Assembly (NCBI GenBank): GCA_964441745.1
Contig: CAYTYR010000005.1
Span: forward strand, 1 to 64,000
Direction: 5' to 3'
DNA: 64,000 nt
Origin: an uncultured Clostridia bacterium
GTDB lineage: Bacteria; CAYTYR01; UBA6262
The first letter of the stretch is position 1. Each line of letters begins with the position of its first letter. Under the pieces are notes generated by a model. The model was not told where the DNA came from. It worked only from the letters and a program-made list of their open reading frames with translations, and made no database searches. Made by a program: the position numbers and the translations under genes. This document shows, piece after piece, positions 1,220-53,233 of the stretch.

Positions 1220-2406
1220 ATATTTGCATTTTTACCAGGACAACTTTAGCGCATAGCATTGGCGGTATGGAAGTCCATACCAATTTATTAGCTAATGGTT
1301 TAGTGCAACAAGGCCATCTGGTAACCATTATCACTACTGGTCATAAAGACGGCAAGCTCTCAGAAACTATTGATGGCGTGGTTATTCATTATATCTCCGG
1401 GACCAAGCCAGGCAAGTATTCACGGAAATGGTATCGCCAAAGCCGGGAAAAATTTATGGAATTACATCAACAGCGCTTTTTTGATATTGTCTGCAGTGAA
1501 AGCGCCGGGGCCTTTGGTTTACTGAAATCTGCTCTGTCTAGGAAAACCGGGATTCCAGTAGTGGTTATTTTCCACGGTATTTTTTATAACGAGCTTAAAA
1601 CCCGGTTCAATCTGGGATTTAGCCTGAAATCCCTGGCTGCCGCAGTATATTACCTGGGTACATATATTTTCCGGGACATGAGCTTGGTTGCCCGGGCCAA
1701 AGCGATCATTGCTACCAGCCATGAACAAAAACATTTAATCAAAAAGTTTTATTTCCTGCCGGAAAATAAAGTATTTACCGTTCTTAACGGTATTGACACA
1801 AAAATAGCGCCGGCAGACGACAGCCTGAAAAAGAATTTAGGCTTTGCTGCTGATGATAAGGTCATACTAAGTGTAGCCAGGCTAAAAAGAGAAAAAGGAT
1901 TGCATGTTATTTTACAGGCTCTGCCAGAGATCCTGGTAGATGTGCCTAAGGCTAAATTATTGATCATCGGTGAAGGGGAATACCGGGGATATTTGGAAGG
2001 GCTGGCCAATGACTTGGGACTACTCGGAAAGGTACTCTTTATCGGTGCTCTGCCCTATGCGGAATTAGGTAAATATTTCCATTTGGCTGATGTTTTCGTC
2101 AATTCTACGATCAGGGAAAACGGGTATGACTTGACTATCATCCAGGGCATGGCTTATGGTAAGCCAGTAGTTGTTTCCAGGTTGAAATCTTTAAATGGTG
2201 TTATTGACGATGGCAAAAATGGATTTCTGGTTGCCCGGGGAGAGGCTAAAGAATTAAGCCAGGCCGTAAGAAAAGTCTTACAAAATCCACAACTGATGAT
2301 GACCATAGGGAAAGCAGCACAGCAGCAAGCGCAGGATTTGTTTAGCGTAGAAAATATGGTGAAAAATACGATCAAGGTATTTGAAAAATGTATATCCATA
2401 AAATAA
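1216..2406 (+). CDS. Glycosyltransferase family 4
   Basis: GGME N-terminal motif, VARLKREKG, ENGYDLTIIQGMAYGKPVV (variant EX7E motif). Confidence 0.88.
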   Translation: MNICIFTRTTLAHSIGGMEVHTNLLANGLVQQGHLVTIITTGHKDGKLSETIDGVVIHYISGTKPGKYSRKWYRQSREKFMELHQQRFFDIVCSESAGAFGLLKSALSRKTGIPVVVIFHGIFYNELKTRFNLGFSLKSLAAAVYYLGTYIFRDMSLVARAKAIIATSHEQKHLIKKFYFLPENKVFTVLNGIDTKIAPADDSLKKNLGFAADDKVILSVARLKREKGLHVILQALPEILVDVPKAKLLIIGEGEYRGYLEGLANDLGLLGKVLFIGALPYAELGKYFHLADVFVNSTIRENGYDLTIIQGMAYGKPVVVSRLKSLNGVIDDGKNGFLVARGEAKELSQAVRKVLQNPQLMMTIGKAAQQQAQDLFSVENMVKNTIKVFEKCISIK

Positions 2407-3197
2407 AGCACGGACTGGCTAAAATAAAGGAAAAAGTCTGGCCGGCTGGGTTTGACGGCTGGCTCAGAATATATCTCACCTTGCGCTGTAACCTGGATTG
2501 TCCTTATTGTGTCCATCACCATAATTTGGCAGGGTCAAGGGCTGATCAGTATGAGTTGCTGCCCTGGCAAAAATGGGCTGAGTTCATCAATAATACCGGC
2601 AAAGATGTGATTTTTACCGGCGGCGAACCGTTTTTATACCCGGATTTTGTAAAGCTGTTAAATGCCATCTCTCCTGGCATTAAGGTCAAGGTTTATTCAA
2701 ATCTGAGCGCCGAGATGGATGACTATATCAAGAATTGTCACCGGCCGGTGATATTTTTCGGAACTTATCATCCGTCCAGCGGGCCGGTGGATAAATTTAT
2801 CAGTAAGATCAATGCTTTGCGGGCAGCCGGCAAGTTTACCGGCAGTATCCATATGGTAGGCTGGGGACAACAGCTGGATTTTGTGATCAAAGCCAAGAAA
2901 GAATTTGCGCGGCAGGAATGGTATGTGTATATCGATGATGACCAGTATTTGACGGATGACAGTTCGTGTATGAAATACCGCAAAAATGTCCGTTGTACAC
3001 GCCGAATTTATCTTTTGGCCCCTGATGGGCGGAGATTTATCTGCGTTTCCAAGATGCTGGGCCAGAAAGATGACCTGGGCAATATCTTAACTACAGGATT
3101 GGGGCCAGATAAGGTAAGTGTTGAATGTCAGGATTATGGCTTTTGTAATCCCTGTGATCAACTGGGCGAAACCAGGATTAAGATAATGGGGGAGTGA
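2388..3197 (+). CDS. Radical SAM protein with Cys-rich C-terminal extension
   Basis: CNLDCPYC (CxxxCxxC) and FTGGEP motifs; further Cys at the C-terminus (CQDYGFCNPC). Confidence 0.85.
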   Translation: MYIHKIKHGLAKIKEKVWPAGFDGWLRIYLTLRCNLDCPYCVHHHNLAGSRADQYELLPWQKWAEFINNTGKDVIFTGGEPFLYPDFVKLLNAISPGIKVKVYSNLSAEMDDYIKNCHRPVIFFGTYHPSSGPVDKFISKINALRAAGKFTGSIHMVGWGQQLDFVIKAKKEFARQEWYVYIDDDQYLTDDSSCMKYRKNVRCTRRIYLLAPDGRRFICVSKMLGQKDDLGNILTTGLGPDKVSVECQDYGFCNPCDQLGETRIKIMGE

Positions 3198-34993: not shown

Positions 34994-35115
34994 AGATTTA
35001 CCCCAAACCCCGCTCACAGGGGCTCCCCCGCCAACGATCTTTGGCGGGCTCACTCGGCTGATTTCCTGGCCGGAAATCAAAACGCCGGCTCGCTGTTACC
35101 CCTTGGGGTGAATCT
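34994..35115. mobile_element. MITE-like element with terminal inverted repeats, abutting the tRNA-Leu 3' end
   Basis: AGATTTACCCCAA ... TTGGGGTGAATCT (12/13 match), internal hairpins, no ORF. Confidence 0.5.
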
Positions 35116-35300: not shown

Positions 35301-35567
35301 TTTTTTTCTTAAAAAACGATTACACAGATTTTAAGAGAAGATTACACAGATTAGAACCCTTCATATAAAGGCAAGCAAAAAAGTGTTTTTTGCAATCATT
35401 TGCCTTGTTTGCTTGTAAAAACGTGTATAAGCATAGAGAAGCAAGGGGGTGACAGCGAGGTCGCAAAGAGAATGTGGTTGCGATCAACACGTTACCGACC
35501 GAGCGTCAAGAGGGGGAAAGGTTATTTCCCCCTATGAGGGAGTCCCGATCTTATCGGGACGACAATA

Positions 35568-35685
35568 GTGCGGTACCCAAGTGGCTAAGGGACCTGCCCG
35601 CCAGAGTCTGGTGGCGGGGCAGTCTGCAACCCGCCAACGTACTTTGGCGGGCAAATCCCTGCCTGACGGCAGGCAGGCGCCCCGC
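35568..35685 (+). pseudogene. Disrupted tRNA-Cys copy with three hairpin inserts
   Basis: Colinear with 35951-36023 except for hairpins at 35593-35618, 35630-35651 and 35658-35677; acceptor ends are truncated. Confidence 0.85.
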
Positions 35686-35702
35686 TTAATGAATGAAAAT
35701 AC

Positions 35703-35945
35703 ATGATATATTTTGTATATATATTAAAAAGCTTAAAAGATGGTAAAAGATATATTGGAATAACTTCAAACTTATTTATAAGAGTGATTGAACACAATAA
35801 GGGTGGAGTTGAGTCGACAAAGAATAGACATCCGCTTGAACTAATATACACAGAAAAGTTTGCAAGTAAAAAAGAAGCGCAAAGAAGAGAAAGATTTTTC
35901 AAGACTGGTGCGGGGCGGACATTCTTAAGTAGAATATCGAAATAG
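35703..35945 (+). CDS. Small stand-alone GIY-YIG nuclease
   Basis: FVYIL...YIGIT...R...HN...E..A..RE..FK.G.GR; 80 aa; AT-rich. Confidence 0.88.
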   Translation: MIYFVYILKSLKDGKRYIGITSNLFIRVIEHNKGGVESTKNRHPLELIYTEKFASKKEAQRRERFFKTGAGRTFLSRISK

Positions 35946-35950
35946 GTGAC

Positions 35951-36023
35951 GGTGCGGTACCCAAGTGGCTAAGGGAGCAGTCTGCAAAACTGTTATTCGG
36001 CGGTTCAAATCCGCCCCGCACCT
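35951..36023 (+). tRNA. tRNA-Cys (GCA)
   Basis: GGTGCGG/CCGCACC acceptor, GCAGT-CTGCAAA-ACTGT anticodon arm, GGTTCAAATCC, U discriminator. Confidence 0.94.
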
Positions 36024-36047
36024 TTTAAATAGGATACAAAAGGTGAG

Positions 36048-36138
36048 AGTGGTTAAGGGACCTGCCCGCTAGAGTCTGGTGGCGGGGCAGTCTGCAACCC
36101 GCCAACGTACTTTGGCGGGCAAAATCCGCCCCGCACCT
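36048..36138 (+). pseudogene. Second disrupted tRNA-Cys copy (5'-truncated, two hairpin inserts)
   Basis: AGTGGTTAAGGGA-[CCTGCCCGCTAGAGTCTGGTGGCGGG]-GCAGTCTGCAA-[CCCGCCAACGTACTTTGGCGGG]-CAAAATCCGCCCCGCACCT. Confidence 0.85.
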
Positions 36139-36175
36139 CCAAAAATCGGTTTAAAATCAATATATATACGACATC

Positions 36176-36379
36176 GGGCAGTTAGCTCAGTTTCAGCCAA
36201 AGGCTGATCCGCCTCTGACGGAGGTTAGAGTACTTCCTTGACCTGGGAGGGGCATCCCGATAGAAGAAAAATGGGCTTGTAGCTCAGCTGGTTAGAGTAC
36301 TTCCTTGACATGGAAGGGGTCTGCGGTTCGAATCCGCACAAGCCCACCATTTTCCTTTTCATCGGGATACTGCCCACCA
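36176..36379 (+). pseudogene. Disrupted outer tRNA-Val (GAC) enclosing an intact tRNA-Val
   Basis: 5' GGGCAGT pairs with ACTGCCC-ACCA at 36369-36379; 30-nt double hairpin in the D-loop; T-arm replaced by an IR-flanked cassette. Confidence 0.75.
36273..36349 (+). tRNA. tRNA-Val (GAC)
   Basis: GGGCTTG/CAAGCCC acceptor, CTTCC-TTGACAT-GGAAG anticodon arm, GGTTCGAATCC, encoded CCA. Confidence 0.95.
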
Positions 36380-36406
36380 TAAAAATGGTGGAGAAAAGAA
36401 ATATAT

Positions 36407-38137
36407 ATGGAAAAAAATGAAGAGAACCTGCAAGCATTAAGACATTCCGCATCACATGTAATGGCCCAGGCAGTTAAAGAACTGTACCCTGAGGTAAAAC
36501 TGGCCATTGGCCCAGCTATTGCTGATGGTTTCTACTATGATTTTGACAAGAAAGAACCCTTCACTCCGGAAGACCTCGAAAAAATCTCCCAAAAAATGAA
36601 AGAAATCGTCAAACAAAATCTCAAATTCGAGCATTATGAAAAATCCCGCGCCGAAGCTATCAAATATTTCCAGGATAAAGGCGAAAAATACAAAGTAGAA
36701 CTCATCAACGACCTGCCTGACGAGAATATGTCATTTTATAAACAGGGTGATTTTGTTGACCTGTGCAAAGGCCCGCATACCAACTATACCGGTGGCTTAA
36801 AACATTTCAAGTTGTTGAGCGTAGCAGCGGCCTATTGGCGCGGAAATGAAAAAAGAGAGAGCTTACAGCGCATATATGGTACCGTATTCTTTACCAAAGA
36901 AGAATTAGACGCCTACCTGAACCTGTTAGAGGAAGCCAAAGCGCGTGACCATCGTAAATTAGGCAAAGAGCTGGACCTGTTCAGTTTTCATGAAGAAGCT
37001 GGCCCGGGATTGGTTTTCTGGCATCCTAAAGGATCTTTGGTCCGCAAGGTCATAGAAGATTTCTGGAAAGATGAGCACCTGAAGAATGGTTACAATCTGC
37101 TCAATACGCCGCATATTGCTAACCTGAATATCTGGAAAACCAGCGGACATTGGAATTTCTACCGGGAGAGCATGTATTCCCCGATGGATATAGACGGCCA
37201 GGACTATATGATCAAGCCGATGAATTGCCCATTTCATATCCTGATCTATAAGACCCAATTGCGCAGTTACCGGGAGCTTCCTATCCGTTACGCGGAATTA
37301 GGGACAGTTTACCGCTATGAGCGCAGTGGCGCTTTGCACGGTTTGATGAGAGTGCGCGGGTTTACCCAGGATGATGCGCATATCTATTGCCGGTTGGACC
37401 AGTTGGAAAACGAGATCATTGATGTCATAAAATTTGTCCTGTTCATCTTGCAGACTTTCGGGTTTAAGGAATATGAAGTGTATGTCAGCACGAGACCGGA
37501 AAAGTATGCCGGTGAATTGGCGCATTGGGAAAAAGCCACTTCGGCGTTGGAAAATGCCCTTAAAGCTGTTGGTTTAACTTACCAGATAGATCCGGGTGAA
37601 GGAGTTTTTTACGGGCCGAAGATCGATATTAAGATCAAAGATTGCCTGAATCGTGCCTGGCAATGTTCCACTATCCAGGTGGATTTCAACTTACCTACCG
37701 CGTTTAAAGTAGAGTATATTAATGAAGAAAGCAAACCTGTGCAGCCAGTAATGATTCACCGCGCGCTGATGGGCTCCCTGGAACGTTTCTTTGGCGTATT
37801 GATCGAGCACTATAAAGGGGCTTTCCCGGTATGGCTCTGCCCGGTACAGGCCAAGGTACTCAATATTACTGACAGCCAGGAAGAATATGCTAAAAAAGTA
37901 TTTGCCCAGCTCAAGGAAAATGGTATCCGCGCTGAGCTGGATATTCGCAATGAAAAATTGGGTATGAAGATCAGGGAAGCGCAATTGGCTAAGATCCCTT
38001 ATATGCTGGTAGTAGGAGATAAAGAAAAAGAAAATGGTACGGTCACCCTGCGCCGGCGCAATAGCCAGGAACAAAAAGTCAGGCCTTTAGCTGATTTTAT
38101 CAGTTTGGCTCTAGAAGAGATCAAAAATAGGATATAA
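36407..38137 (+). CDS. thrS: Threonine--tRNA ligase (short form without N-terminal TGS domain)
   Basis: RHSASH, DLCKGPH, RDHRKLG, KPMNCP, RVRGFTQDD, FYGPK, MIHRA. Confidence 0.97.
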   Translation: MEKNEENLQALRHSASHVMAQAVKELYPEVKLAIGPAIADGFYYDFDKKEPFTPEDLEKISQKMKEIVKQNLKFEHYEKSRAEAIKYFQDKGEKYKVELINDLPDENMSFYKQGDFVDLCKGPHTNYTGGLKHFKLLSVAAAYWRGNEKRESLQRIYGTVFFTKEELDAYLNLLEEAKARDHRKLGKELDLFSFHEEAGPGLVFWHPKGSLVRKVIEDFWKDEHLKNGYNLLNTPHIANLNIWKTSGHWNFYRESMYSPMDIDGQDYMIKPMNCPFHILIYKTQLRSYRELPIRYAELGTVYRYERSGALHGLMRVRGFTQDDAHIYCRLDQLENEIIDVIKFVLFILQTFGFKEYEVYVSTRPEKYAGELAHWEKATSALENALKAVGLTYQIDPGEGVFYGPKIDIKIKDCLNRAWQCSTIQVDFNLPTAFKVEYINEESKPVQPVMIHRALMGSLERFFGVLIEHYKGAFPVWLCPVQAKVLNITDSQEEYAKKVFAQLKENGIRAELDIRNEKLGMKIREAQLAKIPYMLVVGDKEKENGTVTLRRRNSQEQKVRPLADFISLALEEIKNRI

Positions 38138-45411: not shown

Positions 45412-45540
45412 TGCTAAATTACAAATTGCATCGTCCCAATGTATTGGAACTTATTACAAATTTAAGTATTTATATATTAGTATAGTTACCATAATTTAGC
45501 ATAAACGAAGTGATAAAACTTGTAATTTGGAATGTTAATT

Positions 45541-52964: not shown

Positions 52965-53027
52965 TATCTAGGCTGGAACCGGACTTTTGTTTTTCCTAAA
53001 AAGCTCCGGTTTTATCTTTGAATAGTT

Positions 53028-53110
53028 GCCGGAGTGGCGGAATGGCATACGCGTTGGTCTCAAAAACCAATGGTCTTAGGGCCTTGTGGGTTCAAGTCCC
53101 ACCTCCGGCA
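53028..53110 (+). tRNA. tRNA-Leu (CAA)
   Basis: GCCGGAG/CTCCGGC acceptor, TTGGT-CTCAAAA-ACCAA anticodon arm, variable arm, GGTTCAAGTCCC. Confidence 0.95.
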
Positions 53111-53233
53111 TTTATATGAAAATAAAGGGCTTGAAGCTGACCCGAACGCCACTGGTCCGAGTGAGGGCAGCCGGCTTCGGAGGAAGCCGCTGAAATAGCG
53201 GCTGGGGGAGAAGAAGTCCCACCTCCGGCATTT
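53094..53233 (+). repeat. 20-bp direct repeat of the tRNA-Leu 3' end around a 100-bp structured spacer
   Basis: AAGTCCCACCTCCGGCATTT at 53094-53113 and 53214-53233. Confidence 0.9.

Follow-up and report, generated by a model that had tools for sequence, protein, structure and literature searches.

How does a genome come to hold one transfer RNA (tRNA) gene inside another gene for the same tRNA, and which of the two still serves the cell? The question is raised by 204 nucleotides (nt), positions 36176-36379 on the plus strand of a 64,000-nt window (the whole stretch of DNA analysed), which is part of contig C5 of an uncultured Clostridia bacterium (here G000; a metagenome-type assembly of 2.07 Mb in 39 contigs, 98.3% complete). 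Here an intact tRNA-Val(GAC) gene lies within the broken remains of another tRNA-Val(GAC) gene, just upstream of the threonyl-tRNA synthetase gene thrS. Probably, and with reasonable confidence, the stretch is the wreck of the lineage's resident tRNA-Val(GAC) gene, invaded by hairpin repeats of the lineage, with an intact tRNA-Val(GAC) lodged in the place of its T-arm. That the resident gene was replaced in place by the nested isoacceptor is well supported; that the inner tRNA was brought in as the cargo of a hairpin element is plausible but unproven.

The argument starts from the relatives. The collection searched holds nine genomes of the class and phylum, G000 included: G002, G004 and G005 belong to the same genus, G006 to a sister genus and G007 to another family of the class. 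The thrS-linked comparison draws on G002, G004, G005 and G006; G001 and G003 are unassembled at this region, the sequence 5' of thrS being found in neither, and a contig of G003 ends 5 nt into tRNA-Val. All four family genomes whose assembly covers this region have one intact tRNA-Val(GAC), with the acceptor stem GGGCAGT/ACTGCCC, upstream of thrS; it lies 168-577 nt before the LRHS motif of the synthetase, and its T-arm reads CACAGGTTCGA(G/A)TCCTGT. In the more distant G007 there is a compact Leu-Gly-Cys-Val tRNA cluster, with thrS about 1.1 kb beyond.

The outer copy in the window is of this same type. As the initial annotation had it, GGGCAGT begins at 36176 and is answered by ACTGCCC-ACCA at 36369-36379. 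The 5' part agrees with G002 and G004 at 17 of 17 bases (G006 has one additional D-loop base, AGTCTGG). The portion beyond the D-loop hairpin agrees with the relatives at 29 of 32 positions, the changes being C for A37, G for one stem A, and the deletion of one T in GGGGTC. The 3' end, TACTGCCCA, is common to G002, G004, G005 and G006, and the identity with G002 extends through TACTGCCCACCAT, after which comes a homologous CCACCAT..ATGGTGG hairpin. Because its 5', middle and 3' sequences all match the relatives' gene, the outer copy is evidently, by sequence and by gene order, the lineage's resident thrS-linked tRNA-Val(GAC) gene, which is what the initial annotation had taken it to be.

This gene is dead, incapable of yielding a tRNA, because the T-arm is absent, ARAGORN makes no call, and a splicing endonuclease is not found. 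In place of the 19-nt T-arm stands a palindromic cassette of 115 nt, and no GTTCGAATC-type T-loop is left in the outer copy. ARAGORN calls the inner gene, but never the outer, even with the D-loop insert and the cassette removed in silico, introns allowed and the threshold lowered; such silence is expected of a copy that has lost its T-arm, and for that reason the outer gene was judged by its alignment to the relatives. The tRNA-splicing endonuclease (PF01974) was not found in G000, in a search whose control was positive in four archaea.

The inner copy is a complete tRNA-Val(GAC), called by ARAGORN and scoring 67.1 bits against Rfam RF00005 (gathering score 29, used as the threshold), with acceptor stem GGGCTTG/CAAGCCC and T-arm TGCGG-TTCGAAT-CCGCA. 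Since it is canonical, and the only tRNA-Val(GAC) among the 42 tRNA genes that ARAGORN finds in G000, it is most likely the working copy. Three acceptor pairs and three T-stem pairs differ from the resident type, so it is no recent local duplicate; the D and anticodon core is shared. That core was considered as a marker of lineage and rejected, since at least 120 metagenome contigs have these 32 nt, joined to many different acceptor stems. Within the nine genomes the best match to the inner tRNA, at 87%, is a gene of the resident type.

The junctions between the two copies are those of a palindrome. The ends of the inverted repeat, ATCCCGAT (36254-36261) and ATCGGGAT (36361-36368), pair at 8 of 8 positions, and the pairing continues inward for 11 nt at 91% complementarity (AAGAAAAATGG and CCATTTTCCTT), so that the arms claimed by the initial annotation hold; an inverted match of 7 nt would by itself not be rare in 251 nt (about two are expected, in a rough estimate by hand). 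The cassette contains no open reading frame (ORF), its sole direct repeat is the 9-nt GCCCACCAT, and no target-site duplication was seen at it. A second insert, the 30-nt double hairpin of the outer D-loop, is confirmed by the uninterrupted D-loop of the relatives: its excision joins AGTT to GGTTA, where the relatives read AGTTGGTTA, with the edge ambiguous by 2 nt. The RNA of 36176-36379 is predicted to fold with outer acceptor, repeat stem and inner acceptor nested within one another (minimum free energy -86.1 kcal/mol; z -5.0; none of 200 shuffles equally stable). The 30-nt flanks of the inner tRNA pair, leader with trailer, at -26.3 kcal/mol, a value equalled by 0.12% of 1722 controls in which flanks of other tRNAs of G000 were cross-paired. 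The group I intron model (RF00028) has no match in the window. Table 1 lists the parts, together with the neighbouring features.

Table 1. Parts of the nested tRNA-Val locus and features around it (positions in the window; aa, amino acids)
Feature	Position	Strand	Evidence
Short TCCCGAT..ATCGGGA hairpin, GTCCCGATCTTATCGGGAC	35542..35560	+	sequence
tRNA-Cys cassette	35568..36140	+	neighbour of the Val nest
Hairpin-ridden Cys-like copy with three hairpin inserts	~35568-35690	+	tRNA-Cys cassette
80-aa GIY-YIG gene	35703-35945	+	Pfam GIY-YIG
Intact tRNA-Cys	35951-36023	+	ARAGORN
Second hairpin-ridden Cys-like copy	~36040-36140	+	tRNA-Cys cassette
Outer tRNA-Val(GAC), positions 1-17 (GGGCAGT, TA, 5' strand of D-stem, start of D-loop)	36176..36192	+	17/17 vs G002, G004
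Double hairpin of 30 nt (TCAGCC-AAA-GGCTGA, then TCCGCC..) in outer D-loop, before G18	36193..36222	+	repeat in relatives
Outer tRNA-Val, positions ~18-48 (rest of D-arm, anticodon arm with loop TTGACCT, variable loop)	36223..36253	+	alignment to relatives
Left inverted-repeat arm, ATCCCGATAGAAGAAAAATGG; final 2 bases are G1 and G2 of the inner tRNA	36254..36274	+	repeat search
Inner intact tRNA-Val(GAC), CCA encoded	36273..36349	+	ARAGORN; Rfam RF00005
Right inverted-repeat arm, CCATTTTCCTTTTCATCGGGAT; initial 3 bases are CCA of the inner tRNA	36347..36368	+	repeat search
Outer tRNA-Val, 3' acceptor strand ACTGCCC (36369-36375) and ACCA (36376-36379)	36369..36379	+	7/7 complementary to 36176-36182
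Hairpin CCACCAT-AAAA-ATGGTGG, overlapping the outer CCA end, just 5' of thrS	36374..36391	+	repeat search
thrS, threonyl-tRNA synthetase, 576 aa	36407..38137	+	Pfam tRNA-synt_2b, HGTP_anticodon, tRNA_SAD

Where do the hairpins come from? The one in the D-loop is an element separate from the TCCCGAT cassette, with its own distribution. The double hairpin TCAGCCnnnGGCTGA-TCCGCCnnnGGCGGA, counted at up to two mismatches with the reversed sequence of every genome as control, has 5 copies in G000, 17 in G003, 15 in G002, 4 in G001, 2 in G005 and none in G004 or G006; the reversed control gave none in any genome. It is found as well in intergenic DNA of nine distinct virus contigs (10 matching stretches). 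Two classes of copy can be told apart. The first consists of near-identical dispersed copies in heptamer tracts (..GATAGTT, element, GATTGTTGATAG); copies of the second are always in the D-loop of a tRNA sequence, where AGTT, AATT or AGCT precedes them and GG follows, and the host sequences are copies of genes for Arg-ACG, Arg-CCG, Thr-CGT, Val-GAC, Met/Ile-CAT, His and Pro. In G000, four of the five copies sit in 5' tRNA fragments directly 5' of intact Arg-ACG, Arg-CCG, Thr-CGT and Val genes, and none of the 42 intact tRNA genes contains one. At the Arg-ACG locus, present in G000, G002 and G003, 5' fragment and hairpin are identical in 53 of 53 columns, the remaining fragment and spacer in 36 of 50, and the upstream flank is unalignable; the hairpin there is thus either constrained or homogenised by conversion.

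A related layout of the Val locus is seen in G005, where GGGCAGTTAGCTTGAGTT, the hairpin, GGTTAGA and 8 nt precede an intact tRNA-Val of the resident type; the hairpin is the AAA-loop variant, as in G000, and the upstream flank is similar (TTTAAAA..TATAT). At locus L027 of that genome (contig C77, about 1540-3032), the Val 5' fragment with its double hairpin stands twice, in direct orientation, at either side of some 1.5 kb that encode a toxin-antitoxin pair of an MntA-like nucleotidyltransferase and a HepT-like RNase, just 5' of the intact tRNA-Val and thrS. The 5' fragment at the Thr-CGU locus (C2:61582-61641 in G000; L276, contig C200, in G001) has the acceptor strand GCCGAGG, against GCCCACG in the intact gene; it occupies the resident position, with the upstream flank of the plain loci of G002 and G004, and the hairpins in G000 and G001 differ.

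The cassette that holds the inner tRNA has ends of another family. TCCCGAT..ATCGGGA hairpins with short loops number nine in G000 against none in the reversed control, and the cargo-free hairpin that the initial annotation placed upstream of the nest is a genuine member; the degenerate one it proposed at 45433-45450 (GTCCCAATGTATTGGAAC) bears only a weak likeness and was rejected. With loops of 6-130 nt the family has 15 members in G003, 7 in G001, 4 in G005 and 3 in G004; interiors vary, from 2 to 17 nt. In G003 a dead tRNA-Pro copy (L026) has such hairpins in place of both its anticodon arm and its T-arm, and another lies in the T-loop of a Cys-like copy, so that replacement of a T-arm by a TCCCGAT hairpin has precedents. 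In G004 there is a 21-nt hairpin, TCCCGAT-AGAAGAC-ATCGGGA, whose loop resembles the cassette ends with no tRNA between them. Judged as a miniature inverted-repeat transposable element, the cassette has inverted ends; its short forms are multicopy, and the tRNA-bearing form is single.

Five hairpin families were counted in G000, with reversed-control counts in brackets: TCAGCC 16 (1), TCCGCC 66 (5), CCCGCC 55 (0), TCCCGAT 9 (0) and CCTGCC 35 (0). The hairpin insert families favour tRNA loops, and for one of them a relative shows a physical link with a GIY-YIG gene. In G003 a 104-aa GIY-YIG ORF reads into a copy of tRNA-His that lacks its 5' strand and carries a D-loop double hairpin identical in type to that of the Val gene; an intact tRNA-His adjoins. 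The Asn loci of G001 and G003 are likewise composed of a 5' fragment, a D-loop double hairpin, a GIY-YIG ORF and an intact tRNA-Asn. Given these layouts, the ORF-less loci made up of 5' fragment, hairpin and intact tRNA look like GIY-YIG cassettes that have been stripped.

A GIY-YIG gene is also a close neighbour of the Val nest itself: the 80-aa gene of the tRNA-Cys cassette ends 230 nt 5' of it and is conserved in G003, G004 and G005, though the hairpins of the cassette differ among species. A hairpin block of about 68 nt is directly repeated in that cassette, at about 35593-35660 and 36061-36128. The solved structures nearest to the 80-aa protein in a PDB search are UPF0213 proteins; NCBIfam gives the GIY-YIG proteins no name, and Pfam gives GIY-YIG only.

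Broken copies next to working tRNA genes recur across the genomes of this lineage. Of the 42 ARAGORN genes of G000, 10 have a partial copy of themselves within 300 nt by BLAST, to which Thr-CGT and Trp were added by eye. The 5' self-copies lie upstream of intact tRNAs, several with hairpins at loop positions; 3' self-copies lie 45-260 nt downstream, at Leu-CAA in the window and at Gly-CCC, Glu-CTC, Asp and Trp elsewhere.

Some of these loci, and some others, deserve a description of their own. Hairpins of about 40 nt (CCTGTnCTCCnTGTATGAAG..CTTCAAnGGGGG) split the anticodon loop of dead tRNA-Ser 5' copies at C1:213430-213800 and C1:257200-257480 of G000, upstream of intact tRNA-Ser(UGA) and tRNA-Ser(CGA). 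In the window (53027-53231), an insert of 102 nt comes after tRNA-Leu(CAA), and behind it a repeat of the final 16-18 nt of the tRNA (AGTCCCACCTCCGGCA); a related insert and 3'-end repeat lie downstream of tRNA-Gly(CCC) on contig C9. Behind tRNA-Glu(CUC), at C1:87780-88040 on the minus strand, stand two tandem 64-nt units, each consisting of the final 19 nt of the tRNA and a TCCGCC hairpin. The tRNA-Trp gene (C6:68101-68175) has complementary flanks (-27.8 kcal/mol) and a 13-nt 3'-end repeat 88 nt downstream, and a tRNA-Met (C14:18668-18742) has flanks that pair at -24.8 kcal/mol and consist of inverted heptamer-repeat tracts. A composite hairpin-repeat block that includes CCCGCCAACGATCTTTGGCGGG lies directly 3' of tRNA-Leu(GAG) (34995-35100 in the window), and its reverse complement recurs 5' of tRNA-Arg(CCG) on C10.

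Two further tRNA loci vary in other ways. ARAGORN misses tRNA-Arg(UCU) (G000, C10, about 35962-36248, minus strand; L018, 1315-1511) because a group I intron of about 210 nt interrupts its anticodon loop; the intron matches RF00028 over the full model at 47.5 bits (gathering score 50; E 3.4e-11), and the G003 copy is intronless. In a conserved Met-Val tRNA pair, otherwise almost identical, the Val gene reads GAC in G001 (L012, contig C78) and CAC in G000 (C14:18490-18564), with two differences in the anticodon loop; an anticodon switch is possible, G001 being a genome in which no thrS-linked Val(GAC) was found.

How the preferred explanation would work can be put as follows. Small GC-rich hairpin repeats, some of them tied to tiny GIY-YIG genes, would lodge in the loops of tRNAs and tRNA-like sequences; the genomes that survive would be those with a working copy of the tRNA beside the broken one, or inside it. 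An insertion that brought a whole tRNA with it would be harmless or neutral immediately, and the dead outer copy would afterwards be free to gain the D-loop hairpin and point changes. The nested tRNA would be transcribed jointly with the wreck, probably within the Leu-Gly-Cys-Val tRNA cluster, a shared transcript being suggested by the conservation of that order; RNase P and trimming of the 3' end would free it, and RNase III, an enzyme that G000 has, might possibly cut the stem formed by leader and trailer.

Several observations weigh against this explanation. Searched by its exact acceptor and T-arm pattern, a donor of the inner tRNA has no match in 185,579 species genomes; a relaxed acceptor pattern finds 18 tRNAs, mostly in Patescibacteria or unclassified metagenome-assembled genomes, identical at only 59-66 of 74 bases; and the acceptor together with the core gives nothing in metagenome contigs and nothing in virus contigs. 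The nine genomes contain no second tRNA-bearing cassette and no other copy of the inner parts of the arms. The 9-nt GCCCACCAT stands at the ends of both tRNAs, 30 nt apart, so that four bases, TACT, are all that mark the outer 3' strand locally, and the significance of that strand depends on its match to relatives. The nest holds no nuclease or transposase gene. Neither the TCAGCC double hairpin nor TCCCGAT hairpins flank any of the 13 Y1 transposase loci examined: those of G002 and G003 have none of the five families (0 of 6), and three of the seven in G000 have only a lone CCCGCC or TCCGCC hairpin. Hairpins lie within 300 nt of tRNAs in 20-25% of cases, against 1.1% of the genome, an enrichment that is inflated, since hairpins and the surroundings of tRNAs are both non-coding, and is no strong evidence. 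A consensus scan for promoters and terminators over 35400-36600 yielded nothing usable, so the route of expression is only inferred.

Other results of these searches may be set beside them. Two extra matches to the repeat arms in the nine genomes, at three mismatches, lie in coding DNA and were set aside as chance. No other tRNA bracketed by TCCCGAT..ATCGGGA-type ends was found in the nine genomes. Among the 80 metagenome tRNA-Val(GAC) loci listed, 71 have enough flank, and of these none has a 5' self-copy upstream and one has a 3' copy downstream. A metagenome contig of another lineage (L143, about 960-1110) carries a full-length tRNA-Val(GAC)-like sequence with one acceptor mismatch, and with paired CCCGCC-type hairpins both in its D-loop and in its T-loop.

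Did the replacement happen at a stroke? One version of the explanation, more specific rather than opposed to it, supposes that an element with ends ATCCCGAT..ATCGGGAT, carrying a whole tRNA-Val, replaced the resident T-arm hairpin at once. Such a single event would mean that the genome was never without the tRNA, and the step would be selectively neutral. The inverted repeat abuts the outer 3' strand exactly; the family of hairpins to which its ends belong varies in its interiors; and in other dead copies TCCCGAT hairpins stand where tRNA arms should be. Set against this, the cassette is the sole long-loop member with a tRNA among the nine genomes, it lacks a target-site duplication, and no donor turned up among genomes, metagenome or virus contigs. 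The inner pairing AAAATGG/CCATTTT, moreover, makes use of the tRNA's own GG and CCA with A/T-rich flanks, and the resident genes of the relatives are alike in this. The G004 hairpin, with a loop like cassette ends that an insertion has split, favours two steps. Arrival in one step is therefore possible, to be held tentatively. Of the initial proposal that a tRNA-carrying hairpin replaced the resident isoacceptor, the disruption of the resident gene and the presence of a same-anticodon gene in the place of its T-arm stand; arrival as cargo in one step is a possibility.

A stepwise history would begin from a layout like that of G005, a 5' Val fragment with a hairpin ahead of the intact gene: later a tRNA-Val segment would enter the T-arm of the intact gene, or a hairpin and then a tRNA would take its place, and recombination between the repeated 5' parts would collapse the two copies into the present outer gene. 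The G005 locus itself, in which fragment, AAA-loop hairpin and intact Val follow one another behind a similar upstream flank, speaks for this, as do the 5' fragments with intact genes at Arg-ACG, Arg-CCG and Thr-CGT. At least three events are required, however, no intermediate has been seen, and the G005 fragment reads GCTTGAG against GCTCAG. This particular course is somewhat unlikely, though several steps account for the locus no less well than arrival in one.

Tandem duplication and decay would be simpler: an upstream copy lost its 3' half, and the apparent outer 3' strand is a duplicate of the 9-nt GCCCACCAT that happens to follow a TACT. The repeat of GCCCACCAT and the abundance in G000 of 5' fragments upstream of intact tRNAs are what one would expect of it. 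It has difficulty with the rest of the locus: TACTGCCCACCAT and the ATGGTGG hairpin after it agree with G002 at the 3' end of the resident gene, the 8-bp end of the repeat abuts the outer 3' strand exactly, and the inner gene differs from the resident in three acceptor and three T-stem pairs. It is improbable.

Could the outer gene be functional after all, its inserts removed from the RNA, or could the whole unit be a structured leader that regulates thrS? The folding of the whole stretch into a nested structure would suit either idea, as would the complete identity of hairpin and 5' fragment at Arg-ACG in three genomes (53/53, against 36/50 for the remainder). A plain gene suffices in the relatives, though, and hairpin-bearing copies at other loci are truncated; removal of the cassette leaves no T-arm, A37 has changed to C, and the splicing endonuclease is the enzyme that was not found. 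So far as sequence allows a verdict, a spliced outer tRNA is excluded, and the pair of ideas is very improbable. Least credible of all is an assembly chimera of two alleles or strains: the assembly is of metagenome type in 39 contigs, and the break of the G003 contig in tRNA-Val, with the thrS 5' region not found in G001 or G003, indicates a locus hard to assemble, but the longest exact match between the two copies is 20 nt (GGTTAGAGTACTTCCTTGAC), shorter than the usual assembly k-mer sizes, which makes a chimera unlikely, the junctions form a coherent palindrome, and the contig continues for tens of kb on either side.

The preferred explanation, replacement of a wrecked resident gene by a nested isoacceptor, may be set against known systems. 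Palindromes of the REP/REPIN and BIME kinds are mobilised by RAYT transposases, which are IS200/IS605-like Y1 enzymes. The hairpins here resemble them: they are short, GC-rich and extragenic, in five families of 9-66 copies against 0-5 in the reversed sequence; they insert without target duplication, after a short preferred sequence (..GTT); and G000 has eight Y1_Tnp matches. They differ in lying inside tRNA-like sequences, at loop positions, and in the want of double or TCCCGAT hairpins around the Y1 loci, for which reason a Y1/RAYT transposase was dropped as the mobiliser.

Intervening sequences of 23S rRNA offer a likeness in form: the tip of a helix is replaced by a longer stem-loop, which may carry cargo and whose stem is a natural substrate of RNase III, an enzyme G000 possesses; the rRNA is left fragmented but working. 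In the nest, by contrast, the host tRNA is dead without its T-arm, and the cargo is the functional part. The disrupted tRNAs of archaea and red algae (with multiple introns, split or permuted) are interrupted, like the outer gene, at D-loop and T-arm positions; those are restored as RNA through a bulge-helix-bulge and the splicing endonuclease, whereas excision here restores no tRNA.

Integrating elements leave partial tRNA genes at attL and attR (van der Gulik et al. 2023, PMC9897764). A broken copy beside an intact one recalls such scars, and so do the 3'-end duplicates downstream of Leu-CAA, Gly-CCC, Glu-CTC, Asp and Trp. The known cases as described there, however, duplicate the 3' part of the gene across a kb-sized element with an integrase (PMC9897764); here a whole tRNA lies within 115 nt, with no recombinase, and the broken copies are mostly 5' parts.

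A nuclease that drives the replacement of tRNA genes has a precedent in SegB of phage T4, described as a free-standing GIY-YIG homing endonuclease, encoded in a tRNA cluster, that recognises a tRNA T-stem-loop motif and drives the joint inheritance of the gene that encodes it and of adjacent tRNA genes (PMC2330249). The tie between a GIY-YIG nuclease and tRNA genes is common to both; SegB is larger, is borne by a phage and cuts double-stranded DNA, and hairpin repeats and nested tRNAs are absent from that description.

Closer in scale are the Ssn proteins, reported to be single-domain GIY-YIG nucleases of single-stranded DNA that go with SRM/NTS hairpin repeats; their genes are flanked by hairpin repeats of 20-50 nt, which are also scattered genome-wide (Chenal et al. 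2025, PMC11893778). The 80-aa gene between hairpin-ridden tRNA-Cys copies, 5' of the nest, is arranged like this, the match being to Pfam only, and so is the G003 tRNA-His cassette, in which the D-loop double hairpin abuts the GIY-YIG gene. On the other side, the nest is without a nuclease gene, the local protein has UPF0213 proteins as its nearest solved relatives, and the main text of PMC11893778 makes no mention of tRNA. Full-text literature searches turned up no account of a tRNA lying within a tRNA pseudogene, or of bacterial tRNA genes invaded by hairpins.

The locus is a clean, comparatively dated case of an apparently undescribed route by which a tRNA gene is broken and replaced: an essential single-copy gene would have been destroyed and replaced in place, with the intermediate state preserved. 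A small, poorly sampled phylum (nine genomes in the collection) thereby joins the lineages whose tRNA genes are invaded by mini-hairpins and GIY-YIG genes. Such loci break assemblies, as where the G003 contig ends inside tRNA-Val, and they confuse tRNA annotation. If the inner tRNA did arrive as cargo, whole tRNA genes would travel as passengers of hairpin elements, which would explain sudden changes of acceptor stem between close relatives. A bolder extension, unlikely as matters stand, is a mobile system that rescues its own victims: hairpin DNA recognised by a GIY-YIG nuclease (Ssn-like) would invade tRNA stem-loops and might carry a replacement tRNA of the same anticodon with different stems. 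Such a system would spread without killing its host and would swap tRNA alleles between genomes, a form of homing or addiction acting on tRNA genes.

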